Assembly (NCBI GenBank): GCA_032718475.1
Contig: JAUCBJ010007049.1
Location: 1 to 64,000 of the forward strand
DNA length: 64,000 nucleotides
From: Nemertoderma westbladi
Taxonomy: Eukaryota > Animalia > Xenacoelomorpha
Direction: 5' to 3'
In this document: positions 1 through 59,705 of the stretch, in pieces
Layout: every line of letters starts with the position of its first letter
Numbering within the stretch: position 1 is the stretch's first letter
Position numbers and translations under genes: made by a program
Notes under the pieces: generated by a model
The model's database searches: none
What the model was told of the DNA's origin: nothing
Seen by the model: the letters and a program-made list of their open reading frames with translations, nothing else

Positions 1-1
1 T

Positions 2-33888: not shown

Positions 33889-34843
33889 TATTATTCGACT
33901 GATCGTAATATATAATCTCTGACAAATATTATTCACTTTCGGGAAATATTAACAGTTCCTTTAGGGCGTGGCGCTCTAAATATGTAAACAGAGTTATGAC
34001 TTAAACTAGACACAACGAAAAGGCTATAGATTCACGTATATGGCGCATTCTTTAGGAGATGCTTTGTTATCAGTTACAATCATACACAATGCTGCACAAT
34101 ACTGCACACTAATCTGCCGACCTTCACTAAATTTAGTCATGTATAAAGAGAGCAACATACAATTTATGTCGGGCCTATGAAATAGCATTAGATTCACTTC
34201 AAACCACTTAACATAGGTCGCAATCGTTTATCTATAACCGGTCTCTCTAACCTTTAGTATATCAAGAAGGTTGGGTGTCTGACTATTGATCAGTATTCCG
34301 ATATAATATTTCATCAACAAATATAATGAATAACCGACAGTAAAAGCAGTAAAGTTAAGGTATGAATGATTATTAAGTGAGTTAACTGAGTTTTGGTCTG
34401 ATAACATATATACACTCTATAATTAAGCCTACCAATGTTAAGCTAAAGACTGAAACACGGAGGTGCCAAAAGCCGGTGTTCTTAGGCTCTGGGCAAAAAC
34501 ATAACCCTGAATTCCTGAGTTTCTGTATCCACCTCCAACACAGAGACAAAAAACGCTCTGATTGGTCGACCGAACAACGAGAGAACAAAGAAACAAAGAA
34601 ATGTCGATGTGGCAATATCAGCTGTTAGCCGTCGTCATGGTAGCGACACTGTTTTCAAGAGGATCTAGCTTATTGCGTCACGAGATTGCGGATTATGTCC
34701 TCTAAAGTACAAATACAGAAGAAATGACTTTTATGTCCTCTAAAACACCAGTACAGTAAGGACACGGCCCTTTATGCCTGTTAAACCAACTACAGAGTAC
34801 TTTACGGGGAAAATAACCGGCTAATTACGCAAAAGCCTTTACA
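33889..34843 (-). repeat. Putative 3' LTR of C (~955 bp)
   Basis: Starts TGTAAAGG right after GGGAGCGG, the same PPT-like motif that precedes B's 3' LTR. The left end is inferred from where the D gag frame resumes; no second copy in the window. Confidence 0.55.
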
Positions 34844-34921: not shown

Positions 34922-37900
34922 TTAGTATTTCTTACGAGGATGGCGTTTACGCAGTTTTTTGAGGCTAGCAAGAGTCCTTTTCTCTTTGGGGCGAGCCACT
35001 TTACTAGGAGGGCTGTAACTCCTGGGTGAAGGGTGCAATACAATTGCATCAGAAGGTTTAGGATTACTATCGGTGTATCCGCCAGTTGAGGTACCTGGTT
35101 GATCGATATCAACTTCAGTGGAGCGAGGTCTAACGGCCTTTAGGGCGCGTCTTAGGACAGCAGCTCCTACGGGTCCTTGACGGGTCGTCTGGACAACGGC
35201 GGTAGGTGGACCGTGAGTGGTGAGAAACTTCCTTGGTTTAATGGTTCTAATGATGACCATTAACTCAATTACAACCATTAATGGTTTAATGGTTGTAATT
35301 GATCAAATGGTATGAAGTAATATCGTTAGGATTGACGTTCCTAAGATATCTTCGAACAAATTTAGTGGAAATACACTCACCAACACGCTTCATTAGCTCG
35401 TAACTCGGTATGCGTGTTTTTTGTTCCACAGACACTAATAAATAAGGATGGAACGCGTAAACTCCCTCGTAAGAGCGTCCAGGGTAGTATCGATGACGGG
35501 ACTCACAATGTAAATCCGCGTTAGCTTCCCAAGCTCGGATGTAGCGCAGGGTAATCATTTCATCTACGCTCTCTAAATCGTGATTAAAGGGGCAATTATA
35601 ACTGGCATGTCCTTTAAGTTGACAGTGGTGGCATTGAGTCATAAATTGGGGGCAGACTGCAAAAATATGAGAGTTATTAAGTCTGCAATACGCACAATAT
35701 ATCTCCATCATCGGTTGTTCGTGGAAATAGGAGCAGGGCACGTCTGAGTCCATAGGGGTGAAATGGTCTCTCGATGCGCATAATCTACAACGTTTTCGAG
35801 AAACATAGTTAGCGTGTCGATAATCGTATGCGGTGAGACATTGTGGACCTTGATACCACTCTAAGACGTAGTCGTTATCGCTGCTCCGGGGTGCTGTAGG
35901 CTGAATCGCTTCAGCTTCTAAGCATATTGGTTCGTCTTCCAATTGCATAGCTGAGGTAGGTGCGGCTGTCTCCGCAAGCGGACCCACTGTCTGAACTTCG
36001 ATGACAAAATAACCCGTGGGTATTCGGGGTCTTTGTATAACAGATGAATGTAAGTTCTGTATACAAATGTCCTGAAAAAGGGCAAATCCCGCGCTGTTTA
36101 GCTTCTCCGCCGCTGAGTCTCTCAGGCTGAGTTTGGTCAGAGCGCGGTCCTTGAACTGACTATCAACGTTACGGAACGGAGTCAGAAAGCGCCTGAAACA
36201 TTCAAAGCGGATGAATTTATTGTGTTCATCTAACTTGGCGAGTTTGGTTCCGAGTATTAAGGGATGGGCGCGTATGGTACGACTGCACACATCGGCTAGC
36301 CAACCGGCAAGTGCTGCGTTTTCAAAGATCGTGTATATAGCTAAGGAGGGACGAAGTGGAACACTCATAAAGCTATACACGGCGCCAGGTGCGGTCAATG
36401 GTCCATCAAAGTATAAACGAGAATAATGATCTCCGTATACTTGTTGGTAATTGATAGGATTTCCAACCTTGAAATTCCATCCGTATTCTTGAAAGGCAAG
36501 ATGTCCGATGGAGGTTCGTTGTACTTTAGTAATTCCGCTGGGTGTATTGGCATACATAGTGCGGAAGAAACCTCGGCCTTCTGCCCAAGGAGCAATCAGC
36601 TGAGTATCAACGAAGGGGTATGGAATGTTCTCCATATTCCGAAAGTCGTTCTGTAGGTCTCCATAAACAGCTGAGCCGATTTTAAGGATTCTTTCGTTAA
36701 ACAACATCTCGAGCACGGGTTGGGGTAACATCGATCCATCGATACCCATGGCCGGTTTGCGCTCGGTGTCGGTGACGTAACGCTGCGCAAGTTCAAATTG
36801 TCCATGTCGGAGTTTCTTTTGTGTCTCAGTAAGAGTTTCAAAAGAATAATCAATAACGTCGGAACACGCTCGAGTAAATACGTGGGTAGAACCAGCGAGT
36901 CCTCGTATATGTATCATCCACGTAGTTCCAAGTTCTCCAACCGGAACGCTACCTTCGTTATCGTAAGTGACAACTCCATACATCTCGATAACGTTAAGAG
37001 TTTCGTTCCACTCCTTTGTGGCGTTTTCGAGTGTCATTCCCACAGGATGCCACAAGGTAGCGCATTCTCTAGCATTAGGCAGGTCTTTATACTTTAAATA
37101 TTGTGTGGTATGTGTTTCCACATCTCCATATCGTTGTATTCTTTCCTCCTCGAATAACACATCAAGATTCCAGTGCACTAAACGAGTTTTGATGAATCCA
37201 TCAAGATTATACGGAGGTATTGTTTCTTTCTCTATTCTGGAAACATTATATGGTTTTCGAAATGAGTTTACTTTAACTAACTGATCCAGATGTTTCTGCA
37301 GTTGTTCGAGTTCGACAAGATCGAGAGGATTTATTAGCGGTAGAAACTTCAGACTATGTGTAGGATCTTCCGGTTTTACCATGTAATATTGTTTTAGATT
37401 GACGTAATAAGGGTGATCTTTGATCCCGTAAAACGAGTCCGGTAAAGGTCTAGCGCGTGTGTTTACATTGTGTACCATGCGACGGACAAGATCTGCTCTA
37501 TTGTCCGGAGGTTCAACGAGTATACCATCGACACGAGCGGATTCGATGGGCGGACGCTGCAACAGAGGAGCGTCGGCGATAAGATCTCGAGATCTTAGGT
37601 TGATATCAACCGGTTGGGGTTGTGCCGTCGCAAAAAGTTTGTCTCCGAAATGGGGAACCATCGAGGGATGAAGAATGGTTTTAGAGTAGAGATCCGTCAT
37701 AAGGATTTGCGCTTCAGGTTGAGCTAAAGCCGCTTCTTCTCTCTCATCCAGTTCTATATGTCTCTCCTCGAGCTGATTCTCCTCCGCTTGTTGTTGTAGA
37801 CGCTCATCTAGAAACTCTTGTAAAGAGTAGGTTCGTCCACGTTCGATGTCCTCCTCGAGATTTTGTATTTCTCTATCGAACTGGGGTAAAGCTAATTCCT

Positions 37901-39110
37901 TCACCGCTTGGACTTGTTGCTGCAATTTACGCTTCTCCAAACAATCGTACGTTCCCTTTCCGATTTTCTAGCGTCTAATGCGTTTCGTACGACGCTCTCT
38001 TCTACTTCCGTAACGGGTTGGATAGAGGTGAAGCCGGGGTGGTTGTATGGGTTAAACGGCAATATTAGATGACCACGTCCCAATCCAGCTAGGTAGGGTT
38101 GGCGAATGTCTCGTGAGCCTACTACCGGAGTGCCACCGATCAACTGTTCGGGTAACACTAGATCTTTGAACAGTGAGTACAGTTCGGGAGGATCCGTGAT
38201 ACTATTAGGGTCAAGAGTTTGAGGTCTGACTAAGGAATGCGGAGGTCTGACCGAGTATTCCGGAACTCTGATCATCGGTTTGTTCAAGGATCGCTTGTGT
38301 CGAGCGACCGCGGGGGACACGTCGAACAGGTTTCGCTCGAAACTCCCGTAAGTATATTGTGTAAAACTGTGTTTAGCGCAACGTCTCCGCGGATGTTTAC
38401 GTCTTTCCGTTTGCTGATTGGGTCTAGGGCATTCGTCGCAGTAATACCACAGACGCATGTCCTGCAGAGGAAACGCGGGTGATCGTTCTCCAGTTTTACA
38501 ATATTCCTCCATCTGTTCGAAGCTATCTGGGACAACAGGTAGCGGTCGATCGGCGGTAAGATACATCATAGTGAAATAGAGTCGTTTGAGTTCTATCATA
38601 GGATCATGATGTATACCTTGAGGATATCGAGTTTCGAGATTTTGTTGACTGGCAATATTGAGGTATGTTTCTCTCAAGAATTCCAGATAATCGTTGAAGT
38701 CGTTGCGTTTATCCGGTTCTTCAACGTCTTCTCTTTCGAGTCGGTTTCGAATAGAGTTCTCGTGTTCTATTCTTGGCTTATCGTTCCGATTCCGTTGGGT
38801 ATGATATTTAAATAAAACCATTTCCCTTTCGGTATCCACATCGTCCGTATCGTGTAAATCGATAGGGTGGCCAGTAGTTAGGAAGTCCATATACGTACCA
38901 TTACGATGCGTATCCATATTTCTTTCACATCTTTCTATAATCCAATTCACGCGTAAGTTGCTCCGGGGACATTGGCGGTTCGATATAATGACCATCATCC
39001 TCCGTAGTAGTTGGACCAGCGTCGCCGCGTATCAAGCTATCGACAAACGCTTGTAAAGGTAGAGTATATCGCTCCCTGATACCAAGATCATCTTCTATCA
39101 ACTCAGTCAT
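34922..39110 (-). pseudogene. Accessory gene of C, probably one ~1400-aa frame broken by frameshifts
   Basis: Consecutive overlapping or abutting ORFs 39110-38925, 38998-37901, 37940-35286 and 35278-34922 (basic tail). Confidence 0.6.
35286..37940 (-). CDS. Exonuclease plus CCHC knuckle part of the C accessory protein
   Basis: VTYDNEG; LPQPVLEMLFNERILKIGSAVYGD; FVDTQ; SIGHLA; PLRPSLAIYTIFE; three knuckles; WEANADLH. Confidence 0.8.
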   Translation of the reverse strand: MEKRKLQQQVQAVKELALPQFDREIQNLEEDIERGRTYSLQEFLDERLQQQAEENQLEERHIELDEREEAALAQPEAQILMTDLYSKTILHPSMVPHFGDKLFATAQPQPVDINLRSRDLIADAPLLQRPPIESARVDGILVEPPDNRADLVRRMVHNVNTRARPLPDSFYGIKDHPYYVNLKQYYMVKPEDPTHSLKFLPLINPLDLVELEQLQKHLDQLVKVNSFRKPYNVSRIEKETIPPYNLDGFIKTRLVHWNLDVLFEEERIQRYGDVETHTTQYLKYKDLPNARECATLWHPVGMTLENATKEWNETLNVIEMYGVVTYDNEGSVPVGELGTTWMIHIRGLAGSTHVFTRACSDVIDYSFETLTETQKKLRHGQFELAQRYVTDTERKPAMGIDGSMLPQPVLEMLFNERILKIGSAVYGDLQNDFRNMENIPYPFVDTQLIAPWAEGRGFFRTMYANTPSGITKVQRTSIGHLAFQEYGWNFKVGNPINYQQVYGDHYSRLYFDGPLTAPGAVYSFMSVPLRPSLAIYTIFENAALAGWLADVCSRTIRAHPLILGTKLAKLDEHNKFIRFECFRRFLTPFRNVDSQFKDRALTKLSLRDSAAEKLNSAGFALFQDICIQNLHSSVIQRPRIPTGYFVIEVQTVGPLAETAAPTSAMQLEDEPICLEAEAIQPTAPRSSDNDYVLEWYQGPQCLTAYDYRHANYVSRKRCRLCASRDHFTPMDSDVPCSYFHEQPMMEIYCAYCRLNNSHIFAVCPQFMTQCHHCQLKGHASYNCPFNHDLESVDEMITLRYIRAWEANADLHCESRHRYYPGRSYEGVYAFHPYLLVSVEQKTRIPSYELMKRVGECISTKFVRRYLRNVNPNDITSYHLINYNH

Positions 39111-43700: not shown

Positions 43701-44980
43701 AGGCGTTTGAAGGGCTCGAGATTATCCCAAAGGCTTGGATGGTCATCCAGTACTCCACCGGTTTCTTGTTGAGGTCTCCTTCAGGCCACCACAAAAATCG
43801 TAGGCTATCTCGATCCCTATCCAGCGCTTTGACTTGTAAGAACATGCCTTCTATATCTGAGGCGAAAGCAATGGAATATTGTCTTAATCTTAATAGTATT
43901 CCCAACAAGGATTGGAGTAAGTTGGGTCCGGGTAACAATTCAGAATTAAGAGATTGGCCCATATAAAGGGCGGAACCGTCAAACACCACTCGTACTTCAT
44001 GGGGTTTACCGGGTTTGGGAACGTAATGGTGAGTTAAATAATACGTTCTCTCAGTTATAGGTGTTTCTTCCGGTACTAGCTCCGCATATCCCTTGCTAAT
44101 AAACTTCTTCAACTGCGTTTGATACATTTCTTTAGCTGAAGAATTTGCTGTAAGGCGTCGATGTACTTGAGCAATTCTTTTCTCCGCCAAAGGTCTGTTG
44201 TTAATGAACTTTGGTTCTCGCTTTCGGAAAGGAAGTCCGATCTCATACCTACCTTGATCTTTAAGAAAACGAGTAGTTGTCGCTTGGATCTGCTTGGCTC
44301 TTTCTTCCTCCACCGATAGGGCCTTATCGTAGGAGTTGGGCTCTACAACCTCTTGAGTAAAGAATCTTACGGCGTGTTCATCCCGAGTCTTGGCATTATA
44401 ACGTTCAATGACGTCATTAAGCTCATCGTTATAGTCGTCTCGCTCGGATGGGAGAAGGAGTTGACATAAGTTCACTTGATTTTGCCAAGTCTCGCTTTCC
44501 TTAAAGAGATCGATGGCATTCTCCTCATCGAAAAGTTGATGTATATCGTCGTTGTCTGAGGAGTATGGAGTTCCCTCAGTTGGATCGTCGAACTCACTGT
44601 TCTCAACTTCCAATTCTCGCACTTGATATACCTGATCTTTCGGTAATCTTTCCATGAGAGTTCTACGGGAAGGGCCAGTAAAGTACCAACCTACTCTAGT
44701 TCTTACCGCATAGGTTTGTAGTGGCTGCGGTTGAGCAGGCCGTTTCTCCAATGTCTCGAGCGCCTCATGCGCGTTTTGGCCGATGAGTATTTGCACTCCA
44801 GGATAATCTGTCTGGAATCGAGGTATCTTAAGATGTTGGATGCTCTCATCCTCGTCCCAATTATAAAGGTCTGCTTGGGTAGTAGCGAAGTTCTTTATAG
44901 CCACCATTTTCACTGACCTTATGCTATGTTCTCCTAGTTCGTCCTGGGGGGTGGACAACGCACCTACATAATAATCCGCT
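40750..44980 (-). pseudogene. Pol of C (end of protease, RT, RNase H, integrase) with two frameshifts
   Basis: IYMDD, FGDAS, YWTDA, NPADIASRG, HAGR..CIPC, VDLFGP, SDKGTNF, WERLI. Breaks near 42750 and 42290. Confidence 0.9.
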
Positions 44981-45108
44981 TATAGAATTATATTCTCTAA
45001 ATGCCGTGGATTTTCAAAATTTTATTTTTATTCGAATTAACTTTGTAAAGATTGCTTTGAGTCCTCATTTGTATTGCTATTTCTATTTATACGCCTATTG
45101 GTCAAGTA

Positions 45109-45193
45109 GTTCAGTAGCTCAGTCGGTAGAGCGTTGGAAATTATATGTGTAGTAGGTATTGAGTTCGAATCCTAGTAATGCGAATTATTTTTT
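45109..45193 (+). ncRNA. tRNA-derived cassette in 5' LTR of B
   Basis: TAGCTCAGTCGGTAGAGC (A box/D arm), GAGTTCGAATCC (B box), T6. Anticodon and acceptor arms are degenerate. Confidence 0.65.
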
Positions 45194-45389
45194 GTGCAGA
45201 ATTTCAACTCATTTAAATTGACCGCTACAAATTAATTGCATTTGTCTGTACCAATGAGACTGCAGTTATTAGATTGTAACCAATGTCGTGCAAGTTATAT
45301 ATTAGCTGGACCAATAGTTATCTTTAAAAACCTGTTAGAACCTATAGAACAATCGAGAATTTTCTCGATTGATTGCAGCACAAATTTGG

Positions 45390-45420
45390 TATATAAAGGT
45401 GCGATTTCGTTCATTAGTTA
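45390..45420 (+). promoter_or_regulatory. Candidate TATA/Inr in LTR of B
   Basis: TATATAAAG followed by TCATTAGTT; TATAAA is retained in A. Confidence 0.4.
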
Positions 45421-46909
45421 TCTTTCTAATTCTATTTCAGATTAATTATTCTGAGTTATCTGATATTTGTTTATTCTGTCATTAGTATTCAGATTACATT
45501 TTGTATTATTATCTGCAATAAATTCAGAAATACCGCTATCTGCTTTTCCTTTCACCATGGATTCACTACGGTGAACAACCTTAGGAACAGGATGGCCGGC
45601 TAGAGATCGGGCCGCAGCAATGAACGGGAACATCGGGGGAATGTAGACAAGAGACAACCCGCAATACCATCTTGAGTTATTCGCCCATCGCCTGAAAGGT
45701 TAGACAGCGTTCGACGCCTTGCTACCTAAGTGTAAGACCAAAAGATCAAAGGGTAGAAGTAGTGACACGCTGTGAGCCTAAAATTACATCTTAGGGACTG
45801 TACTGTCTTGATTCAGGAAAAACCACAGTAGACCTTCACATTCCTACGGGGGGGAGAGCGCAGGCAGAGATACTAGTACGCAGATAGGACGTAGGCACAC
45901 CGGTACGAAGCATACAAATTGGTAGGGTGCAGCAAACTGTACGCCTAACTCTTGCTAAGTACGGGTGCGTCTGTGACTATTTGCAGTACAACAGTGTCCA
46001 TTGCATCAGAACTTGTAGGCTAGGAGGGTTGCTGTGTTTTCACCTGAATTGGGATTGTACCGTTCAGGCGGTAGGGCAGTTTACAACTAGGCGCAAATAA
46101 ATTGAGGCTATTAGGGATATACTAACATCTATCGTGTCCCCGCCAACGCCCTGATAGGAAGTTACCCAGCCTACCTGGGTGACTAAAATTCTAGATAAGA
46201 GCCAGGATAGCTATTAGTAACTGTACGCCTACAGTAGTAAACTAACACATCTCTTCTTAGTATCAGGGACCTGGTACCTAAAATTGCCGAATTCTGGGCG
46301 TAGCATTAACCTTATGCCTGAATTTGAGTCCTGGAAATACGCAAGAGGGGAAGGAACCTTATCATACGAATATTCTAATTTTGTAACTTGTAGGTCCAAT
46401 ACTCACTATTGGACCTACAAGTTACAAAATTAGAATATTCGTAAAATGCACACCGTACCCAGTAATTATATATGTGAAGGAGCAAAACTGCTTTTGACCG
46501 TTCAAAATTAACACACGCGCGTTAGAAATTATTTACACCTCAAAATATATAAAATTAACTTTTGTCCGTACTGTGCTTTGCCCGCTAGTTAGACATCTCC
46601 AAATCTCTGCCTTTGTACCTAGCTAGCGTCCCTTTCGCCCAACCATATAAATCACACCGCGGCAAAGTATACGAGCCCCTTAGTCCGTCAGTGGGTCAGC
46701 CTGATTTTAGGATTCGCTGCGCGGGATTTTGTTTTATCGAAGTTTGTCTGCTCGTAGACTGTTTTCTGCCTCACCGGTTATAAGAGATCGATACTGCAAT
46801 ATATTCGCTTACTTAGAGTTTACTGTTTTGGTGAGAAGGTCGGATTTATGATTTGATTCACAAACTTTACAGTAGGATATTGCAGGTATTGTTACCGTCT
46901 CTTCCAATA

Positions 46910-46928
46910 GTAGGAATGTGTTTTACTG
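46910..46928 (+). other. Non-canonical primer-binding-site position
   Basis: GTAGGAATGTGTTTTACTG directly follows the LTR, no TGG; complementary to 45826-45847. Confidence 0.55.
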
Positions 46929-47720
46929 AACTACGGTTCAGTAGGACTAAAGTTATTTGAAAATTTTGTATTTTGAGGTAAAAGTTTATATTTGATTAGC
47001 TAAGTGCTGATTTTTTGAAATAAAATTTGATTTGAACCGCGTGTAAAATATTTTTGGAATTGAATACCGGTGTTTAAAAGGGTTTAAATACCATATTGTA
47101 CCGGTACAAAATTTTTGTAAAAGTAAAACCTAACTCTTTTGTTTTTCAGGATTCAGAACTCATTTCTAGACTGTAACGGGAGCAAGACCGTGTTTAGCAA
47201 GTTTGGGAGATAGATAACTCAACAACTTTGGTTGGGAAAATCGCGCTTCGTCCGCAACGCTGGAAACGGAAAGGTTCACGTTCGGTTTGTATCTGGGAAT
47301 CTGTTTTTCTGGAGAATTATTGGAGTGGGTGAGTTCGAAAAGTTGCATAAATAAGTTAGGCATTACCGTATTAGTTAAAATTATTGTGGGTTCCACTGTC
47401 TCAAGTATTTATGCATTCCGTATGATTTCTTTGTTCATTGCTGAATTAGTCCGTATTATTGTATTTAATTTACCTTTTGATAACGCATATCGTTATCCGA
47501 TTTATTTGTTATAAAATTGGCCGCTAGGCTAATTTTATTATATACTTATTCCGTGACATTTATTTGCTGTAAAATTGGCCGTCTAGGCTAATTTTATCCA
47601 TCTGCTATAAAATCGGCCGGTAGGCTAATTTTATATGACTGTAATTAGTACCATTTAGATATAAATACGGTAAATTTGATACTTTGACACTCACATTTTA
47701 CTTGACCTACAACTACCGAA

Positions 47721-50700
47721 ATGAGTGACAAACAAGACTATACGAAGAATACACCTACCGACTATGACTCATGTGACGCGGATAAGTCAGCAGCGGAAGA
47801 ACAACAGGGGAAGACTCGCGAGCCTACCGAACCTACACCGTGTGCGTCACCAGTACATCCAACGGGAGTACCGGATGCCGTAGTACGAGGCGACGGCAGG
47901 ACCGAGGACTTTCTAACTGTTCCGCAACCTAGATACAGGGAAACGGACATGGTAAGTTCAGTAGGAAGCCAGGAGAGCGTAGTTAGAAGCGTCGGCGGTT
48001 ACATGGCGCATATTACCAGGAGTATTGGAGAAGGCCAACGCATATTAGACGAGTTAACCGCTCCGATGTCTCGGTTCGAGTTCTACACTCTACAGGTGAG
48101 AGTACAGAGTAAAGTATATAAGTCCGTAGATAATCTAATTGGTCTACAAGATCTAGCTAGACAGAGACAGGACATGGATACTCAACTTAGAATCCTCGAG
48201 AAACTAATGATCGCTAGAGAGAAACTGATTCAGTTTAAGTCGACGATTAGACAGATACAACAGGAACAAGCGGACCAGTTGTTAGGTGAGTCAGTTTCGG
48301 ACGAATTATTGCAACCCGAGGAAGAACAGGAACTGTATAGGCTGGATGGACAATTGAAACACCTGACAGATCACTTACGCATGTGCGGCGAGGACGTCGG
48401 AGATTGGGAAACCGTGCCGGAGGCTACGAGGGAAACTTCACTCGCACAAATCAAACCGGCACCGGGAACACTAGATCAATCACTGGTGAGTATTCGCAGC
48501 GAAATTGGCGAGGTGAGTATGGCTACGTCAGAAATTGCTCGACAACAGCAGATCTACAGACAACAACAAGAGTGGGAGGAACAAACTCAATTCTTAATGG
48601 CACAAGTAGCAGCAGAAGAAGAGAAACTACGCGTTGCGAATGTTGCGAGAATCTCTCATCTGCAAGAACAAGCTGAGTTGGAAGTAGCCGAAATGGAAAG
48701 GTTAGAGTTGGACATTGCACAACAAGCAGCAGCGGCCGAGTTAGCGCAACGAACGGCAGCGGCCGAGTTAGAGCGACAAGCAGCAGCGGCAGCGGCAGCG
48801 GCAGCGTCCGAGTTAGAGCGACAAAGGTTAGCTTCAGAAGCGAGAACCGAAATGAAAAAACGGCAAATAAAGGCTCAATCAGCTATACGACAAGCGGAGT
48901 TCGAGGCGCAACAACAACAAACGGAACAACGCGAGAAAGAAGTTAAACTTCGTTTCGAACTCGAGAAGAAGGCGAGAGAATTAGCCAACGCCAAGGAAGA
49001 CCTGGATCTACAAGCCCGCGATCGATCGATGAGATCTCGAGACGGACATGATTTAGACCAGATGGAGGTAAGGCACCGCCAAATCCAGGAACGAATGAAG
49101 GAAGGTTCGATAGGAGCACCTGGACGGGAACGACAATTAGTTAAAGACTTATGTCAAAGATTCCCTCAAGTAACTCCTATGTTTGCACCAGTTACGACTA
49201 AGGAACCTGTTTCGATTGCGGGTAGTAGTAACATTTCTCCTATCCGTGGTGCGACGGAACACAGGTTTGTTATTCCGGACAAGTTTACACCACCAAGAGC
49301 AACGTCGTCGCCTATTCTAAAAGTCAAGGTAAGTAACCCACCGATTACAGATCGTAGTAGTTTATTAGTCGAACCTGTATTACTGACGACTAAACAGGTG
49401 AGTCCACTGTCGACACCTAAACCCGTTACACACTACGAATACCCAATGACGTTTCGACCTACAAGGCCAGTTCAGTTTACATCGCAATCTACGACTTCGA
49501 GGAAGACTTGTGAGCCTACCGAACAACGGAGACCAGTGGATACGCGACCGAACCAGTTTACATCGCAATCTACGACTTCGAGGAAGACTTGTGAGCCTAC
49601 CGAACAACGGAGACCAGTGGATACGCGACCGAACCAGTTTACATCGCAATCTACGACTTCGAGGAAGACTTGTGAGCCTACCGAACAACGGAGACCAGTG
49701 GATACGCGACCGAACCAGTTTACATCGCAATCTACGACTTCGAGGAAGACTTGTGAGCCTACCGAACAACGGAGATCAGTGGACGATGTTCCAAAGCGAA
49801 ACGTGAGAATTCGTACGACGCAACGGACGCGAACACGTCGACCACCATATCCAGATGATAGTAGTACTTCGAGCGAATCGGATTACCCGAAACGCGAGGT
49901 ATTTAGAACAGGGGCGGCCGATGAATATAAACGCGAGCGTTCAGACAACTCCTTTGCAGACAATCCTCCACAAAATACACCAACACAGAAGGCGTTACAA
50001 CCCACGGACGCAATCAGTACACAACAGTTAGCCGACATCATGCGACCAGTTGTTAACAAGTTGGCTCAGATCGAGGAGCGTCTGGAGGAAGTTCAAACCG
50101 ATAGTTCGAGGAACACTGAATTCGAACACAATAGACACCCGAAGGAACCACAAAGACCGGTACCTTCAAAACACCCATCGTATCAGGGAAAAGCGCCAAG
50201 AAGGGATATCAACCAGTGTACCAACCAAGGACGCGAAACTCGGAACGTTGCCGAGGAGATAGCGAAATTCGCAGCCAGACAGGGATTGCCGGTGCAACAA
50301 CCACCTAAGTTTTCCGGTAGCTCAAAACACTGGCACACTTTCGTAGACTATATCGAATCTCAGATCGCCGTGTGCGCCTTTACATCACGGGAGAAGTTTA
50401 ATTACCTGCTTCAAACGTTGTCAGGAGAACCTAAACGTTTGGCAGAGACCTTCGTTGGTGTACCGGACGCCTTCGAACTAGCGTACGATCGTTTAACTTC
50501 GATATATGGAGGTACAGTCAGTATGGCCAGGTCAGTAATAGAGGAACTCTGTAAGGGAGGGGCTATCACTAAACCCGTCGACTTATTAAAACTGGCCGAC
50601 GAGATAAAGAACGCTATCACTACTTTAAGATCCATTGGACAACTTGACTACGGGAATACCCCTACAGTCCTATTAAAGATCATAGGACGACTCCACCATC

Positions 50701-52301
50701 GACTTCGTCGGGAGTGGAGAAAGATCGAATACCAGCGAGAAGAGCGGGGTGGATTCTTAAAATTAGAAGATGTGTACCTTTTGATATCCAGGGAGGCAGT
50801 AGTAGAAACTCGATCTAACTACACTGACCAGCACATCGTGGCAGAAGGGATCACCTTGCCATCCTCCAACCGACAAAAACCCCAGACAACATCCACCAAG
50901 ACGGCCACTTACGCCACATCGACGGAAACCCGACAATTCTCGGACGGAAATAGGGTATCTACGCCCATTGGGATAAAACAGACTCGACAGCAACTCAGTA
51001 CCGACTTCAGCGGCTGCCAATACTGCGAGCATTTAGGCAAGCGGTATAGCGGTCACAAGTTGAGAGGTTGTCGACAGTTTCGCGAGTTAAACTCGGAAGA
51101 ACGACGGCTGCAGATACGGCCATTGGACTCTTGTTGGCGGTGTACGCGACACGGACACGTCCGTAAAGATTGCCCAAATACCGACACTTGTCCATCCTGT
51201 GGACGCAACCACGACGGTCTGCTCCACACAGACAGCCACACGCCGACAAAACGCTTCGCCAGGGAACACCCGGAAGCAGCAGCGAGATGTGATGCGGCCT
51301 ATAAGAATCGAGAATCGAAAACGACTCCAACCTTCGTGACCCATATTGAGGATTGCTTCTCAGAACAACCCGGATCGTCGGACGAAGAGTCAGAAGACGA
51401 CGACGTATATTCGGATGGAGATGAACAGCCATCGATCGCGCTTCTGACTACTGACCAACTGAAGGGATTCAGTGTAATTCCGATTAAGATTACTGGCACA
51501 AAGGGGAGTAAGAGAATCTACGCTATCCTGGATTCAGCCTCATCTCACAGCTACGTGGATGAAAAGATAGCTGACGTCGTGACGGATCTCAGACTAGGTA
51601 AGCGCGTCAGTTATACCGTAAGTAGTATGCACGGACAGCGTGCAATACCAGTGACACGAGTTAAGTTGGACTTAGACTCTCTTCTTCCAAAATCGCAGCA
51701 CAGCGAGAGGGAGAGGTCTTTGTTACCCTTCAAGGATTTGACCTTTGCGGCCACAAAAGACTTTAGTAACCTACTAGGTCCGGTCCCAGAACAATCCTTG
51801 GAGGACCGTAAGTATTTCAGACACCTTGGTGTACCTGAATGTCCTGTCAATTATAGATCGGTAGCCATGCTGATCGGGACGGACCAATTCAACCTACATC
51901 AGGTGTGGGAAACCAGACCATCGGCAGTCGTAGCGGGAAACGCATACGCCTGTAGAACGCCGATAGGGTGGTATACTCGAGCGCCTGTGCGCACACTGGA
52001 CATAAGTGACGAGGAAGACGATGTACAAAGTACATGTAGTTTATTAACTATAAATTCAATTCATTCCTTTTCACACGACGTGGACCATACTACACTACAG
52101 TCGACAAAACATAACAGACGTGTAACTAGTATGATAAGTCACAAGGAGCAGCTAACCCACCAGGTGAGTTTAGAACTTGGGGAGAAGACGAGTCAGCTAG
52201 AGATTCCATCGACGACAGATGATAGGCTTGCGAGTCTACCTACCCCAACAACCTCAACAATGCCCGTCGATATCGATGATGACGCGTTGAGAAATCATTA
52301 A
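47721..52301 (+). CDS. Gag-protease part of the B polyprotein
   Basis: PKFSGSSKHW, three Cys/His knuckles (CQYC, CWRC, CPSC), ILDSAS protease motif. Confidence 0.92.
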   Translation: MSDKQDYTKNTPTDYDSCDADKSAAEEQQGKTREPTEPTPCASPVHPTGVPDAVVRGDGRTEDFLTVPQPRYRETDMVSSVGSQESVVRSVGGYMAHITRSIGEGQRILDELTAPMSRFEFYTLQVRVQSKVYKSVDNLIGLQDLARQRQDMDTQLRILEKLMIAREKLIQFKSTIRQIQQEQADQLLGESVSDELLQPEEEQELYRLDGQLKHLTDHLRMCGEDVGDWETVPEATRETSLAQIKPAPGTLDQSLVSIRSEIGEVSMATSEIARQQQIYRQQQEWEEQTQFLMAQVAAEEEKLRVANVARISHLQEQAELEVAEMERLELDIAQQAAAAELAQRTAAAELERQAAAAAAAAASELERQRLASEARTEMKKRQIKAQSAIRQAEFEAQQQQTEQREKEVKLRFELEKKARELANAKEDLDLQARDRSMRSRDGHDLDQMEVRHRQIQERMKEGSIGAPGRERQLVKDLCQRFPQVTPMFAPVTTKEPVSIAGSSNISPIRGATEHRFVIPDKFTPPRATSSPILKVKVSNPPITDRSSLLVEPVLLTTKQVSPLSTPKPVTHYEYPMTFRPTRPVQFTSQSTTSRKTCEPTEQRRPVDTRPNQFTSQSTTSRKTCEPTEQRRPVDTRPNQFTSQSTTSRKTCEPTEQRRPVDTRPNQFTSQSTTSRKTCEPTEQRRSVDDVPKRNVRIRTTQRTRTRRPPYPDDSSTSSESDYPKREVFRTGAADEYKRERSDNSFADNPPQNTPTQKALQPTDAISTQQLADIMRPVVNKLAQIEERLEEVQTDSSRNTEFEHNRHPKEPQRPVPSKHPSYQGKAPRRDINQCTNQGRETRNVAEEIAKFAARQGLPVQQPPKFSGSSKHWHTFVDYIESQIAVCAFTSREKFNYLLQTLSGEPKRLAETFVGVPDAFELAYDRLTSIYGGTVSMARSVIEELCKGGAITKPVDLLKLADEIKNAITTLRSIGQLDYGNTPTVLLKIIGRLHHRLRREWRKIEYQREERGGFLKLEDVYLLISREAVVETRSNYTDQHIVAEGITLPSSNRQKPQTTSTKTATYATSTETRQFSDGNRVSTPIGIKQTRQQLSTDFSGCQYCEHLGKRYSGHKLRGCRQFRELNSEERRLQIRPLDSCWRCTRHGHVRKDCPNTDTCPSCGRNHDGLLHTDSHTPTKRFAREHPEAAARCDAAYKNRESKTTPTFVTHIEDCFSEQPGSSDEESEDDDVYSDGDEQPSIALLTTDQLKGFSVIPIKITGTKGSKRIYAILDSASSHSYVDEKIADVVTDLRLGKRVSYTVSSMHGQRAIPVTRVKLDLDSLLPKSQHSERERSLLPFKDLTFAATKDFSNLLGPVPEQSLEDRKYFRHLGVPECPVNYRSVAMLIGTDQFNLHQVWETRPSAVVAGNAYACRTPIGWYTRAPVRTLDISDEEDDVQSTCSLLTINSIHSFSHDVDHTTLQSTKHNRRVTSMISHKEQLTHQVSLELGEKTSQLEIPSTTDDRLASLPTPTTSTMPVDIDDDALRNH
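49472..49780 (+). repeat. In-frame 81-bp repeat in gag of B, about 4 copies
   Basis: QFTSQSTTSRKTCEPTEQRRPVDTRPN repeated. Confidence 0.92.
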
Positions 52302-55300
52302 ATGGAACAAGCCGCATTGGACAAAGAATTGACGGAGAAGACTATCAGGTGGTTAGAACAAGATACAGCTGAACCTGGTAGCTACGAACCATGTATGTCG
52401 GAACAGGAGAAACAATCTTTGAGGATCATGGAAGATACTATCCGCCAGACGAAAGACGGACATTATGAGGTGGGGATGTTATGGCGTAGCCAAAGTCCTA
52501 AACTTATAAATAACTACCCACTAGCTTTAAGACGTCTACACTCAATACGGCAACGTCTATTAAAGGACGAGAAAGCCCATCTGCAGTACAACACTCAGAT
52601 GGAGACGTATTTGACTAAGGGATACGCTATCCGAATGACTAACCCAGAGATAGTGACTAACCAAACATATTACTTGCCACATCACTATGTGAGACACCCC
52701 GACAAACCAGATAAAGTACGCGTAGTCAATGACTGTGCGGCTCTGTTTGAGGGAATGTCCCTCAATAGTGAGTTGATGGATGGACCAAACATGAATAATT
52801 ATCTTATGGGGGTGATTATGCGCTTCCGTCAGCGTCAAGTAGCTTTTACTTGTGACGTAGAAGCGATGTTTCACCAAGTGAAAGCGTTAGAGCGAGACAG
52901 AGACAGTTTGCGGTTCCTCTGGTACCCGGAAGGAGACTTAAGTCTACCACCGGCGACTTACCAAATGCAAGTTCGCGTTTTCGGTGCCAGGGACAGCCCA
53001 AACTGCACGATGTACACCCTAAAACAAGCCGCTAGGGATCAGAAACATCTATATGACCCAGAGATAATTAAAATCGTAGAACGTGACTTTTACGTTGACG
53101 ACGGTTTACAGAGTTGCGACACAGTAGAACGTGCTACAACAGTAGCACATCAATTACGGGACTGCTTAGCGGGCGGAGGTTTTAACCTCACCAAATTCGC
53201 CTCAAACAGTGCCGAATTAGTAGATTCATTCGGAACGACTGAGCGTGGAGGTGGTGACATAGACCTAGAGTTCGAACCACTACCGACGACCAAGGTGTTG
53301 GGGCTCTTTTGGGACCCAAACACGGACAACTTTCGAGTGAAAGTAAGACTGGACAGTCAAGAAAACACACTGACAAAGAGATCATGCTTGTCAAAATTGA
53401 GCCGATTGTTCGATCCATTAGGATTCATCAGTCCAATAATACTGCAAGCCCGCATTTATATGCGCAGTATTTGGAAGGATGGACTGACATGGGACGAGCC
53501 GATCTCATCAGACCAAGTGGACTTATGGAAGACCTGGGAGGCGGAATTATCTTCGCTAGAAGATTATTCCATACCCAGAGTCTACTTTCCATTACAAACT
53601 ACATTTCCTGACAACTTGGAATTACATTGTTTTTCTGACGCCAGTGACAACGGTTTTGGTGTGGCAGCGTACTTGCGCAGACAAGTAGACTCAGAAGAAT
53701 TCGACGTTTCGCTCATTACTTCTAAGGCAAAAACAATGCCTACTAAGTATATGACGACACCACGAGCTGAGCTACAAGCCGCAACCCTGTCAACCACCAT
53801 CGTGAACCTTATACAGACAGAACTACAGTCAAGTTTACAGATATTTTATTGGACTGACGCGACGTTGGTTTTATTTTACATAAACAACGACACACTTGAA
53901 TTCAAGACATTCGTAGCTAACCGTCGCGCGGAAATTCTGGACCGTTCAATAAAAGAGGATTGGCGACATTGTCCCGGACCACAAAACCCAGCCGATATTG
54001 CGTCGCGAGGAATGATGCCTGAGGAATTCTGTAAACCGGAGAACAAAGAATTTTGGCAACACGGACCCCAATTCTTGCAGAAATCGACGCAAGATTGGCC
54101 ACCGTTATACGACAACAAGTCTAACACCATCCCTAAGGACGCCGAAATCAAGAAACCAAAAAAGGGGAAGGCAAAGAAAAAGACGACGGCGACTAAACTC
54201 AAGAAAAAACCGAAGGCGAAATGGAAAGATATAACTTCAAAGGTCAAGAGAGGAAGACTTGCGAGCCTTTCTACACCAGACATATCGCCAGACGGTCAAC
54301 CAGACACGTTACTAGACAGCCAACCAGACATTTTGCCAGACATATCACAAAATGTTCTACCAGACACTAGTAACACATTGACAAATAGAAAAGCCGCAGT
54401 TTCTCTATTGGAGCGGCCTTCTGTTGACAAACAACCAGATACGTTACCAGACGTATCGCCAGACACATTACTAGACAGTCGACTAGACATTTTGTCAGAA
54501 ACATCACAAAATGTTCTACCGGACATTAGTAATGTATTGACTAACAGTAAAGCCGCAGTTTCCCTATTGGAGCGGCCTTGTATTGACAAACTACCAATTT
54601 TGACACACTTGAGCAACCATAAGCATGGTGAAACCTCATGTATTACAGATGTGGGTAGTACCTACGCTAACGTAAATACAGGTGTTACTCTGCGCTCAAG
54701 AGACATACCCAACTTGCAACCTATGGTGAGACCTGGGATTAATGTCGGCAGAAAAATAGGTTTACCGAAACCTGCTGACCCCATAGAGTTCAAACCACCA
54801 TTAACGATCGACTTACAAAGTACCGACAATCAAGGTAAGAAGACGAAGAAGGATAAATTACTTGTAGACCCGGACGGATCAACAGTCAACAAGGGAATAC
54901 TTACCGGCGGACCCGTGGGCCCTTCTAGTAATTCAAAACCTTCAAAATTCTCCATTGACTTACCTGATGACGTCACAAATACTCACGTCGACCGTATTGT
55001 AAACTTAACAGACTCTTGGTCAAACGCTTGCCGAAAATTAGCGTGGATTGTACGTTTTGTACAATACGTTAAAGGCAAACGCGACTTTACACGTCGACTT
55101 ACATTGGCTGAGATTGACAGGTGTGAGATTAAATTAATTCGCCATTACCAACTGCGATATTTCGCGCGCGAATTCACATCCATAAATCAAGGTCAACCAA
55201 TCAAGTCGTCACCAATATTGAGTTGGAGTCCGATTATTTATAATGGCTTAATTTGTCATAAATCTCGGCTTCAAAACATTGACTTTAACACAAACTTTAG

Positions 55301-56495
55301 ATACCCAATAATAATACCGCAACACCACGAACTACAACGTGCAATGATACTGGACGCACATTTACATCTGAAACACGCTGGAAGACACCACTGTCTTTCC
55401 TACTTACGTACAAGATTTGTATTAATTAGACCCAGTAAAGCATTAAGTTCAGTGACACGTACGTGTATTATTTGTAAAAAGGTACATTCTAGAATAGGTA
55501 CCCAAGAAATGAGTGAACTACCACAAGCACGACTTCAAGCATTCAGACCACCTTTTACAGAGACTGGAATTGATTGCTTTGGTCCCATACATACGAAACG
55601 TGGACGTATACTAGTAAAACGCTGGGGACTGATTTTCACATGTATGTCCAGTAGGGCAGTTCATATTGAACGTGTGATGGATCTTTCCACCAACGCGTTT
55701 ATACTAGCATTGCGGCGATTTATCGCTAGACGCGGACTAGTGAAGTGCTTGTACTCAGACCAAGGGACAAACTTTGTTGGTGCTCGAAATGAGATTGCTA
55801 GAGCCTTTAAGAAATTAGATCATGATCAAATCTCGAACGAACTACAACCTCACAAGATTGTTTGGAAGTTTAATCCTCCAGATAGTCCATGGAGAGGCGG
55901 AGTCTGGGAGAGATTGATTAGATCTATAAAAACAGCCATGGCAAAGGTCATTCCAGTAAACCACATATTGACAGACGACCAACTGACAACACTGTTTGTT
56001 GAAATCGAGGCAATACTAAATACTAGACCAATAGTATTAGTACCCGATGACAAACAATCTCAGTTTGCTTTGACACCAGCACACCTGCTAATGCAGGCAC
56101 CGACCACTTTAATGCCTATTTCTATTCCAATAGAAAGCGACAGCTACGGTAGAAAAGCGTGGAAAATCACGCAACTACTGGCTAACAAATTCTGGGAAAT
56201 ATGGCAAAACCATTATTTGCCCTCTATTTCTGCCAGAACAACATGGTACAATAACACCCGCGCATTAAAGCCGGGAGATCACGTGCTGTTGGCAGAAGTG
56301 AATCTAAAAAGACGCTTCTGGATAACAGGTGTAATTTTAGCCACACATCCATCTATGGATGGAGTGACAAGAACTGTGACAGTACGGACAATTGACGGTC
56401 GTACAGTAGACAGACCGACACAACGTCTCGTACTTCTTGAAGAGACTCGTAACGAGTCTGGAGACTACAAATCTCCACCTAATACTAGTAAATAA
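52302..56495 (+). CDS. Pol of B (RT, RNase H, integrase), same frame as gag after one TAA
   Basis: FYVDDG, FSDAS, YWTDA, NPADIASRG, HAGRHH..CIIC, GIDCFGP, SDQGTNF, WERLI. Confidence 0.95.
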   Translation: MEQAALDKELTEKTIRWLEQDTAEPGSYEPCMSEQEKQSLRIMEDTIRQTKDGHYEVGMLWRSQSPKLINNYPLALRRLHSIRQRLLKDEKAHLQYNTQMETYLTKGYAIRMTNPEIVTNQTYYLPHHYVRHPDKPDKVRVVNDCAALFEGMSLNSELMDGPNMNNYLMGVIMRFRQRQVAFTCDVEAMFHQVKALERDRDSLRFLWYPEGDLSLPPATYQMQVRVFGARDSPNCTMYTLKQAARDQKHLYDPEIIKIVERDFYVDDGLQSCDTVERATTVAHQLRDCLAGGGFNLTKFASNSAELVDSFGTTERGGGDIDLEFEPLPTTKVLGLFWDPNTDNFRVKVRLDSQENTLTKRSCLSKLSRLFDPLGFISPIILQARIYMRSIWKDGLTWDEPISSDQVDLWKTWEAELSSLEDYSIPRVYFPLQTTFPDNLELHCFSDASDNGFGVAAYLRRQVDSEEFDVSLITSKAKTMPTKYMTTPRAELQAATLSTTIVNLIQTELQSSLQIFYWTDATLVLFYINNDTLEFKTFVANRRAEILDRSIKEDWRHCPGPQNPADIASRGMMPEEFCKPENKEFWQHGPQFLQKSTQDWPPLYDNKSNTIPKDAEIKKPKKGKAKKKTTATKLKKKPKAKWKDITSKVKRGRLASLSTPDISPDGQPDTLLDSQPDILPDISQNVLPDTSNTLTNRKAAVSLLERPSVDKQPDTLPDVSPDTLLDSRLDILSETSQNVLPDISNVLTNSKAAVSLLERPCIDKLPILTHLSNHKHGETSCITDVGSTYANVNTGVTLRSRDIPNLQPMVRPGINVGRKIGLPKPADPIEFKPPLTIDLQSTDNQGKKTKKDKLLVDPDGSTVNKGILTGGPVGPSSNSKPSKFSIDLPDDVTNTHVDRIVNLTDSWSNACRKLAWIVRFVQYVKGKRDFTRRLTLAEIDRCEIKLIRHYQLRYFAREFTSINQGQPIKSSPILSWSPIIYNGLICHKSRLQNIDFNTNFRYPIIIPQHHELQRAMILDAHLHLKHAGRHHCLSYLRTRFVLIRPSKALSSVTRTCIICKKVHSRIGTQEMSELPQARLQAFRPPFTETGIDCFGPIHTKRGRILVKRWGLIFTCMSSRAVHIERVMDLSTNAFILALRRFIARRGLVKCLYSDQGTNFVGARNEIARAFKKLDHDQISNELQPHKIVWKFNPPDSPWRGGVWERLIRSIKTAMAKVIPVNHILTDDQLTTLFVEIEAILNTRPIVLVPDDKQSQFALTPAHLLMQAPTTLMPISIPIESDSYGRKAWKITQLLANKFWEIWQNHYLPSISARTTWYNNTRALKPGDHVLLAEVNLKRRFWITGVILATHPSMDGVTRTVTVRTIDGRTVDRPTQRLVLLEETRNESGDYKSPPNTSK

Positions 56496-57051
56496 TTAGG
56501 AGTTTACAAATAGATTTCCATGTACCTGTACACCGTAGTAAAGACAGCGGTAGAATTCCATTGTCTTTATATGTGAACATTGAGGGTAGTACCCTTATGT
56601 GTCACATAGGAGCGGGATTTGTAGGTATAAGAAATGGAATTCTACTTGGAACTCACAATATTGAGACATTTTCGAAATTTTAGACAATCCATTTGGATTT
56701 GAAAAATTTTTAAAAATTTTCTCCAGTAAATAGATTTCAGGGTACAGTCGGGTGGAACTTAAAATTAGAGAAACAAGAGAGGAAGACTTGCGAGCCTTTC
56801 TTAAAATTTTAATTAAATCTTACACGGTCTTGTTTCAATAAGTTACGTCAATAAATAGACTCCCCTATATTTATTACTAATTCTTGACTGCTTATTTTCT
56901 GATAATAGTTTGGGATCAAAAAGTGAGTATTTTAGACTCACAGCCAGTTTAGCCCAAATTCGTTTTTTATTTCGGCAAAAAATTTTAGATAAGAAGCAGC
57001 GTGTCATTAAAGAAACCCTAGATCTTAGGCTATGGGTAGGAGGTTAGAGCG

Positions 57052-57531
57052 TTGTCGAGCCAAAAGGGCAGACGAAAACTCTCATGTCTCCTCACAACTA
57101 ACAATAAACTCTGTTGTATTCCCTCTAGTAGCAATGATTATGTAACTACACTTCTAATTATGGAGAAAGGGATACAAGGAGAGCCGAGATGGGGATATGA
57201 TATCCAAGAGGAAGCAGCAGCGCCATTCGAAAGATTTGGAGCCAAGGACTACACTATATTTGGTATAAAGGAATTATCAGAAAGTACAGCGAAACTCGCA
57301 AAGACTAAATATGACAACCCTTCTACAACTCCGACGCTCAGTGTGATGCCTTTACTCGAGCAGGATTTAGTATATTTCGAGACGTGTATCTTCGCTGTGC
57401 GGGATCTCTTATCGAAAGACCATCTATGTTTACATTGTTACCCTATGAAGGAGAACGTATCGTGGAGATTACGGATGAATCACGGCAGACGCGCGCGCCT
57501 ATCGGTCACCTTGGTGATGATTTCGAAGTAA
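57052..57531 (+). CDS. Probable N-terminal, frameshifted part of the B accessory gene
   Basis: Overlaps the next ORF. PLLEQDLVYFETC weakly recalls the ExoIII helix in C and D. Confidence 0.35.
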   Translation: MSSQKGRRKLSCLLTTNNKLCCIPSSSNDYVTTLLIMEKGIQGEPRWGYDIQEEAAAPFERFGAKDYTIFGIKELSESTAKLAKTKYDNPSTTPTLSVMPLLEQDLVYFETCIFAVRDLLSKDHLCLHCYPMKENVSWRLRMNHGRRARLSVTLVMISK

Positions 57532-58898
57532 CTACTACGATCACTGACGATCCTTTAGAGGAACTTCTTGAGATAGAAAGGAACCTCCCGAAGAAATCTC
57601 AGACGGAGATTCGACAACTTGAAGCAACAGATGCTATAGTTTGTATACAACCTTCAGAAACCTACCAACCCATAGATCCAGATGATTACGATTATAGTGT
57701 GGGAGGAAGCGCTCGACCGATTGGAGATCTTATATACGAACGAGTGTGGTACCCTGCCAATACAATGTGTAGTAAATGTGGCGTCGCTGGACATCATATG
57801 ACAAAGTGCAGTGGAAAGCACATTACTACGACTCAGCTAATCTGTGGATGGTGTGGGGATCAAGGGTCTCATACCTTTTATACTTGCTGGAGATTTATGG
57901 CTCAATGTACTTACTGCAATATAAAAGGACATCGAGCATCTAAATGCCAACTAAGAGACATACCTTATGAACACGAATCTGTAAAACTCGTGAGGAAATT
58001 ATTCGATGAGTGGGAAGATTTAGCCGACGAACATGTATCGGCACAAAGAAGACGGTTTCCGATGAGAGCGCATCTTGGATTTTGGGCGGTAAATCCCCAA
58101 ACGATGATGTCGGAAGGATACATCTCCGCTATGCCCCAATACGACGAACTTATCGAGGTAGTCGATATTTTGCCCCACGACAGTGGATTCCGAGTAGTGC
58201 GCGAGTATCTACTACAGATTCACCCGGATAACAAAAACACGTGGAATTTTCAGAAAGTCGTTAACCGCATTACGTATGGTGAATTCGATCGTTTCCGAAC
58301 TGAAAAGCGGAATAAAGGAGCTTGGTTAACCGTCGCATGGGCGTACCGAGCCGCGTTTTACCATAAACGTATACGAGCGAGCGTATTCGAGGAAGAGGAG
58401 GTCCTAGAGGCGACAAATATACCAGCCACTCCGGTTGCGCCGTCTGCACGTCACCCTCGGGAGGACGGACAGGGTAGGATCATACGGGTCCAGAAAGTGG
58501 GCCAACAATTAAAGAAGTCTATTAATATAGAAGAACGCAAGGGAGTCGAGCCGACCATTCGAATTACTCGGGATACGGTATCACTTCCTAGAGAACCAAC
58601 AGGAGGATCGGGACATACACCAGCTGATCAACAGGGGGTGCAAGCTACTCTTGGGTCTGTGTCGTCCGCTTCTCGCGCGTTCCCAGACGTTCTACCAACT
58701 GTAGTGACAACTGATCGGTCACGAGGAATCGGTCGAGGTTTTGGGATGCCAAATAGACGAATTTGCGAGGAAATAGTCGCACCGTCTCTCAACGTCCAAA
58801 CGAAACCAGTGACTCGCCCCACAAGTCCCATATCGCGAGCAAAGTCACCTGTGCGCAGTTTTCGAGGACGCGGCAGGGCTCGATCCACAAAACGATAA
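57384..58898 (+). CDS. Accessory protein of B: 3 CCHC knuckles, conserved helical motif, basic tail
   Basis: CSKC..H..C, CGWC..H..C, CTYC..H..C; WEDLADEH..RRRFP..LGFW; MPQYDEL; VREYL. Confidence 0.8.
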   Translation: MYLRCAGSLIERPSMFTLLPYEGERIVEITDESRQTRAPIGHLGDDFEVTTTITDDPLEELLEIERNLPKKSQTEIRQLEATDAIVCIQPSETYQPIDPDDYDYSVGGSARPIGDLIYERVWYPANTMCSKCGVAGHHMTKCSGKHITTTQLICGWCGDQGSHTFYTCWRFMAQCTYCNIKGHRASKCQLRDIPYEHESVKLVRKLFDEWEDLADEHVSAQRRRFPMRAHLGFWAVNPQTMMSEGYISAMPQYDELIEVVDILPHDSGFRVVREYLLQIHPDNKNTWNFQKVVNRITYGEFDRFRTEKRNKGAWLTVAWAYRAAFYHKRIRASVFEEEEVLEATNIPATPVAPSARHPREDGQGRIIRVQKVGQQLKKSINIEERKGVEPTIRITRDTVSLPREPTGGSGHTPADQQGVQATLGSVSSASRAFPDVLPTVVTTDRSRGIGRGFGMPNRRICEEIVAPSLNVQTKPVTRPTSPISRAKSPVRSFRGRGRARSTKR

Positions 58899-58944
58899 AA
58901 GGGAGGGCAAGGGTGGACGGAAGACTCGTGAGCCTTTCTTATGA

Positions 58945-59620: not shown

Positions 59621-59705
59621 ACGCCCTAAGTATTCTATAGTTTGATTGATTATTGGTGAAAACCGTATATTTTATGCACGATAATATCCTGTTTTCATGG
59701 AGCGG

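Follow-up and report, generated by a model that had tools for sequence, protein, structure and literature searches.

How does a BEL/Pao retrotransposon prime reverse transcription when the bases next to its 5' LTR pair with the LTR itself and not with a tRNA? The replication of BEL/Pao elements is poorly understood and a host tRNA primer is assumed (PMC8742986). The question is raised by element B of Nemertoderma westbladi (44981-61600, + strand, 16.6 kb), which lies in a window of 64,000 nt (contig JAUCBJ010007049.1; by window we mean the whole stretch of DNA analysed). In this window BEL/Pao elements are nested in each other, and B itself is inserted in the opposite-strand element C (Table 1).

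Element B and its primer-binding position

B has the make-up of a BEL/Pao element: its gag-pol follows the domain order Gag, RT, RNase H, integrase, it has two LTRs (97.8% identical) and it is framed by a target site duplication (TSD; CCGCT at 44976-44980 and 61601-61605), with an insertion boundary that agrees with an empty-site contig in runs X3 and X5. The Integrase_H2C2 match is under the curated cut-off of Pfam; the best protein matches of B carry the same domain set, and its pol contains what we take to be the acidic motifs of RT, RNase H and integrase. Among the matches listed, most of the best Pol matches are 39-44% identical to B and, where named, they belong mostly to marine invertebrates. 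The Pol of element D is 30-36% identical to that of B, and no close relatives of B or D were found in the viral, metagenome or genome contigs searched. A single in-frame stop (52299-52301) interrupts gag-pol in B, where the frame of the second copy, A, is uninterrupted.

Table 1. Positions in the window of element B, its copy A, element E and the D-associated LTR, with the observed or predicted features discussed in the text
Feature	Position	Strand	Remarks
B 5' LTR	44981-46909	+	1929 nt; termini TAT...ATA rather than TG...CA
B 3' LTR	59706-61600	+	two substitutions in primer segment, at 60562-60572
B gag-pol, BEL/Pao type	47706-56495	+	DUF1759, Peptidase_A17, Integrase_H2C2, DUF5641
B extra ORF	57315-58898	+	Cys/His knuckle-like motifs; resembles extra ORFs of C and D
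Candidate TATA box	45390-45395	+	motif scan; inferred RNA start ~45415-45425
Upstream AATAAA	45517-45522	+	also in A
LTR-internal splice donor	45698-45704 (exon end 45698)	+	X4 contig joint; context identical in A
Candidate LTR-internal acceptor	45800-45816	+	20 nt 5' of primer segment; identical in A
Candidate self-primer	45837-45847	+	complement of the 11 nt just 3' of the LTR
Purine run, partner of LTR end	45850-45860	+	predicted pairing beside primer duplex
Competing strand	46005-46036	+	predicted to bury 45824-45850 in unspliced RNA
Downstream AATAAA	46096-46101	+	also in A; would put primer in R
LTR end, partner of 45850-45860	46896-46905	+	fold model
B PBS position	46910-46920	+	without TGG; zero spacer from LTR
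cUACGg-loop hairpin	46924-46943	+	directly 3' of PBS; fold prediction
Splice acceptor before gag	47130-47149	+	its use removes both primer and PBS
Copy A	1-10775	-	92% identical to B
A 5' LTR; primer segment; PBS	10775-8840; 9897-9887; 8839-8829	-	
Element E LTR	18769-19315	+	TG...CA, TSD TATTT
E primer-like segment; PBS position	19122-19130; 19316-19324	+	without TGG
LTR downstream of BEL element D	22519-23068	-	69% like E LTR; segment 22708-22700

The preliminary description of this locus reported an exact complement between the first 11 nt after the LTR and a segment within it, and no tRNA-type primer-binding site (PBS). Both observations were confirmed: the pairing ends at 11 nt, and there is no TGG within 46900-46945. 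A mature tRNA primer ends in CCA, hence TGG is expected at the PBS, and a mature CCA-ending tRNA therefore cannot be the primer of B. The 18-nt PBS for a tRNA 3' end that belongs to the BEL/Pao criteria is likewise absent, and no tRNA gene was found within the 64-kb window. The chance of the 11-nt complement is 3.9e-4 by base composition, and 9 of 20,000 dinucleotide shuffles reach it. According to passages of PMC6317226, self-priming is predicted where the 5' LTR is complementary, over at least 10 bp, to a stretch that begins 0-5 bp beyond it; B has 11 bp at offset 0.

In A neither partner has changed, as first described, which at ~8% divergence is weak evidence. The two mismatches noted earlier in the 3' LTR of B are real (equivalents of 45842 and 45847) and weaken the primer duplex from -15.6 to -9.8 kcal/mol. 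Between the two LTRs of B there are six isolated substitutions and a single fold-back insertion. The primer segment, 11 nt long, holds two of the six substitutions (chance 5e-4 for one fixed 11-nt window, noticed post hoc). The fold-back, a 79-nt near-perfect hairpin at 46365-46443 with sub-threshold Rfam miRNA matches, occurs in the B 5' LTR only and is a 34-nt insertion relative to the B 3' LTR and A.

A further rearrangement touches the PBS itself. The A subfamily duplicates the LTR end together with the start of the PBS (8840-8866; eight PBS bases), and because this duplication recurs in several contigs (five in X1, four in X3) it is inherited. A similar motif occurs three times in the leader of element E (19316-19400), and together the A duplication and the E repeats suggest slippage at the priming site.

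Several other features of the window were recorded. The termini TAT...ATA are found in both B-family copies (B, 44981-44985 and 46905-46909; A, 10775 and 8840), and the LTR of a relative, L028, also ends in TATA. Extra ORFs with related Cys/His knuckle-like motifs follow pol in B, in C (35286-37967) and in D (23774-26449); none of the three has a Pfam match, and 636 candidates of similar length included no homologue of that of C. Tandem arrays consist of 81-nt units in gag (49392-49783) and of longer units in the RNase H-integrase linker (54275-54592), 55-nt and 80-nt satellites lie outside the elements (12162-13188, 26747-27892), and a cytochrome P450 fragment lies between elements (15208-16197, - strand). 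The 3' LTR of C (33880-34843, ~960 nt, beginning TGT) apparently lacks its last few bases and abuts the D gag region, which points to a deletion that joined C and D.

Self-complementarity in element E and in related families

Element E (18769-21776) is internally deleted and its LTR is followed by GTGATAGAA. Here, in an element examined after the idea had been formed on B, a 9-nt PBS complement stands at offset zero with letters unlike those of B (34 of 20,000 shuffles), short of the 10-bp rule given in passages of PMC6317226. The interior of E has no match to proteins of B, C or D, nor to Pfam, so that its tie to BEL consists of LTR likeness only. The corresponding segment of the LTR downstream of D differs from that of E by one base; the D PBS lies outside the window and, from the sequence, would be expected to show a matching change at its sixth base. 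In the predicted fold of E, a PBS look-alike in U5 (19267-19276) outcompetes the PBS by 0.5-0.9 kcal/mol. Between E and D (~22555-22563) the look-alike differs in the base opposite the altered primer base; despite this matched change, the lowest-energy fold of D does not pair the segment with it.

An alignment search returned 89 loci at ~40% Pol identity to B, 60 of them with enough flank. Among these, 22 were without a repeat, in 17 the contig ended within the 3' copy, and four were excluded as their repeat ends were not LTR-like (L041, L046, L059, L084); the LTR end could be fixed for the other 17 loci, which form 15 families. A TGG within 5 nt of the LTR end was found in none of the 15 families. 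Contiguous PBS complements in the 3' LTR copies of these relatives are 6-9 nt long, no better than in cross-family controls. In many relatives, the partial match starts directly 3' of a pyrimidine tract followed by AG, and donor-acceptor joins were tested for this reason. When a GT donor in the LTR is joined to a pyrimidine-AG acceptor of the same LTR, an exact complement of 11-15 nt results in 11 of 15 families (six of these 11 with the predicted donor GTAAGT), a length of 11 nt being reached across joins by 9 of 4,500 shuffled PBS. Relaxed filters add L004 (11 nt) and L054/L071 (10 nt). In total, the match crosses a predicted GT-AG junction in 13 of the 15 families, is contiguous and B-like in one (L035 and its copy L033, 10 nt in the 5' LTR) and partial in one (L081), so 14 of 15 match their own LTR over 10-15 nt; the introns are predicted from sequence, and several contigs may come from one host. 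Five of the BEL contigs (L082, L083, L085, L081, L086) are filed within bacterial MAGs, most likely as contamination from host animals. A splice-built primer was also sought in B and E and was not found (best 7 and 0 nt). B and C form a pair in the trees, on long branches, and the base stays open; no order is therefore claimed for intron loss or gain, and unbroken primers may conceivably have arisen by intron loss.

Covariation of PBS and LTR, for which the preliminary description had proposed a test, is seen in one pair of relatives: L082 and L083 differ at three paired positions, with both sides changed. In retroviruses, plus-strand synthesis copies the tRNA primer and thereby rebuilds the PBS. 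Copying of the primer would make primer and PBS co-vary automatically, and this also requires the segment to be the primer.

These comparisons bear on two other explanations. The match in B could be fortuitous: 5 of 700 start positions 3' of the LTR reach 11 nt against the 1.9-kb LTR, the PBS position being one of the five. This reading is highly improbable and already largely refuted, with offset zero in both B and E and a self-match in 14 of 15 families as against 9 of 4,500 shuffles. Alternatively, a host RNA (a tRNA half or another small RNA) could be the primer, and the pairing between LTR and PBS a structural switch for covering the PBS or directing splicing. Half-tRNA primers are known in Ty1/copia lineages, according to passages of PMC6317226; in such priming (copia, Osser, Bianca) the PBS is the complement of the 3' end of a 5' tRNA half. 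The primer duplex of B is disfavoured in the predicted fold of unspliced RNA (below). A shared host primer would, however, keep the PBS constant, whereas the 15 families, B and E differ in their PBS, nearly all of the families match their own LTR and L082 and L083 change both sides jointly; we regard a host primer as improbable.

Transcription, splicing and predicted folding of the B leader

The run data are contigs, which show neither RNA ends nor levels. X4 is recorded as probable DNA; from a GT..AG joint and many A>G changes we infer that it is RNA. The joint, in one X4 contig, was placed at 45696>47148, with the GT..AG cut 2 nt further on, from 45698 to 47150. In another X4 contig (46161-46766) the structured LTR has dozens of A>G changes, which would be typical of ADAR hyper-editing. 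The primer segment lies outside untranscribed U3, a point on which the earlier proposal depended, as the spliced X4 contig shows transcription from upstream. RNA-like contig sequence is found upstream of and across the segment, and a second start site would be invisible in contigs. The candidate acceptor at 45816 is middling (8 of 12 positions are pyrimidines, and 10 of 80 YAG sites have a better score); an X4 contig (45780-45967) crosses it unbroken, and no junction there was seen in the contigs. AATAAA motifs stand on both sides of the primer segment. If that at 45517 ends the genomic RNA, the segment falls in U5 and a simple cut would block strand transfer.

The fold of the RNA was then modelled. 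With a start at ~45420, the fold prediction buries the primer segment in a helix with 46005-46036, and forcing the primer duplex in unspliced RNA costs 5.3-10.2 kcal/mol over four start sites, a cost that varies with the 3' end (15.0 vs 7.7 kcal/mol). When 45698 is joined to 45817, the cost falls to 0-0.8 kcal/mol (three start sites); joins of 45698 to 45829 or 45832 likewise lower it, as do RNA 5' ends at 45817-45837, whereas all five control deletions of equal length leave it at 7.4-10.0 kcal/mol. The model thus predicts a primer duplex that is buried in unspliced RNA and freed when 45699-45816 is absent. With the intron kept, a start at 45760 gives 4.9 kcal/mol and a start at 45700 just 0.5 kcal/mol, so these folding numbers are a lead and not proof.

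A helix that the preliminary description had not mentioned (45850-45860 with 46896-46905) adjoins the primer duplex. Of 1,879 LTR windows, five pair with the LTR end equally well or better, four of them overlapping 45850-45860 and one at 45598, and a second version of the test places the B helix in the best 0.5% of LTR windows. The variant in A is also predicted to form it, with a pairing probability of 0.3-0.46 in B and A. The test covered the 5'-side one of the two flanking duplexes of Tf1; it was negative in all 11 spliced relatives and in E, so this helix is not clade-wide. The extension of the primer duplex by seven pairs, as first proposed, is not supported: it can be drawn (-20.7 kcal/mol in isolation) but is unlikely in context, because 46924-46931 is held by the cUACGg hairpin (pairing with 46936-46943 at a probability of 0.9-1.0).

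As to how a primer end could arise, Rfam gave no ribozyme or tRNA-like match over 44900-47800, only sub-threshold hairpin matches, and self-cleavage or RNase P processing at the primer thus has no support.

Two other variants of self-priming were considered. In one, the self-primer stands at or near the 5' end, with genomic RNA starting at ~45817-45837 as in Tf1 and the upstream promoter serving the spliced mRNA only. A 5' end at 45817-45837 brings the duplex into the lowest-energy fold with 10 of 11 pairs, an end at 45837 gives ten pairs at a probability of ~1.0, and passages of PMC5341516 report that alternative start sites decide the copyability of Tf2 RNA. We nonetheless consider this start unlikely: the motif scan found no TATA-like motif near 45805-45815, the X4 contig that runs from 45780 across the segment means that a longer RNA exists, and in E the bases 5' of the segment pair with bases 3' of the PBS at a probability of ~1.0. 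In the other, the primer is supplied in trans or by the 3' end of an RNA: a leader released by a cut or by termination would prime a second, intact RNA packaged alongside. This would work even with poly(A) added near 45540, the upstream AATAAA (45517) is kept in A, and summed X4 contig depth drops after ~45400-45570, although contigs cannot show ends or levels. However, an AATAAA follows the predicted primer junction in all but one of the 11 spliced relatives, B likewise carries one at 46096, and the helix to the LTR end fits an intramolecular fold; priming in trans is accordingly a rather improbable reading.

A proposed self-priming model and comparison with known systems

Altogether, self-priming of B in some form is very probable. 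The Tf1-like scheme of the preliminary description stands in part: E, 14 of 15 relatives, the predicted neighbouring helix and the transcription from upstream of the segment speak for it; the 7-pair extension and the duplex in unspliced RNA, whose formation costs 5-15 kcal/mol in the model, are the parts that found no support. The reading that we favour, at a probability of roughly 0.55, is that the LTR self-primer is produced by cutting a long, probably spliced RNA within R. Splicing out of the intron 45699-45816 inside the LTR would release the primer pairing, and a cut at 45847/45848, made as in Tf1 by the RNase H of the element and leaving a 3'-OH, would let the segment 45837-45847 prime reverse transcription on the PBS. 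By analogy with Tf1, strong-stop DNA would be copied from 46909 back to 45848 and transferred to a 3' R that reaches beyond the segment, up to a poly(A) site after 46096, and this transfer would restore segment and intron to both new LTRs. Splicing of the donor at 45698 to 47150 yields an mRNA without primer or PBS; with one donor and two acceptors, acceptor choice would thus sort RNA into message and genome.

The feature of B is real and likely reflects a move of the whole clade away from tRNA priming; a Tf1-like mechanism with a probable splicing step explains it best. It is a more tentative proposal, and one that we hold to be possible but doubtful, that a large animal BEL/Pao clade has replaced tRNA priming by splicing-dependent self-priming, with the primer mostly built across an LTR intron, the unbroken primer of B exposed by a folding switch on intron removal, and one splice choice sorting message from genome.

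If a broad BEL/Pao clade self-primes, self-priming would have appeared, or been kept, in a third LTR superfamily beside Ty3/gypsy and Ty1/copia. Dependence of the primer on host splicing would, if true, be a control point for which the literature search found no report, and such elements would be overlooked or ranked lower by annotation software that requires a tRNA-type PBS. A tRNA-fragment defence targets the PBS of retroelements; it would not reach BEL/Pao elements that prime themselves. The search, mainly of open papers without supplements, found no report of BEL/Pao self-priming or of splice-junction primers. A nematode BEL element with a self-encoded tRNA primer has reportedly been described, in a report that the search did not find. 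The accessible text of PMC554778 holds no PBS-related passage, that of PMC3118150 none on primer, PBS or tRNA, and that of PMC8220671 only general passages on PBS and priming.

Compared with known systems, B shares with the Belpaoviridae the gag-pol domain set and order, LTRs, a 5-bp TSD and a polypurine tract. In the ICTV description of the family, the PBS is 18 nt long and fits tRNA-Arg or tRNA-Gly, the LTRs measure 0.2-1.2 kb and the genomes 4.2-10 kb, whereas B is without a tRNA-type PBS and has 1.9-kb LTRs, a length of 16.6 kb and the ends TAT...ATA (PMC8742986). Self-priming is described, in passages of PMC6317226, PMC4600332, PMC5341516, PMC5443660 and PMC3601003, for Tf1/sushi, Tcn1 and TAR elements. 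Tcn1 (Ty3/gypsy) and the plant TAR elements (Ty1/copia; Houba, Osr-1) share the self-priming rule with B, according to passages of PMC6317226, but belong to other superfamilies and hosts, and no splice-built or splice-gated primer is described for them in those passages. B is also similar to Tf1/Tf2 of Schizosaccharomyces pombe, Tj1 of S. japonicus and Tf1/sushi, in which, as in B, an LTR-adjacent PBS pairs with an LTR segment and not with a tRNA (passages of PMC4600332). In the three-duplex structure of Tf1 the primer duplex is flanked by a neighbouring duplex (bioRxiv 2022.12.06.519325), in which nucleotides downstream of the primer pair with nucleotides next to the PBS, as is predicted for B (passages of the same source and of PMC4600332). 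Tf1/sushi elements are Ty3/gypsy chromoviruses, whereas B has BEL/Pao proteins and no chromodomain match. A Tf1-type primer stands at the 5' end of the RNA, whereas the segment of B lies at least 160 nt, and probably ~420 nt, into it. Unlike Tf1, B has an upstream donor in its LTR, and the primers of most of its relatives span a predicted splice junction.
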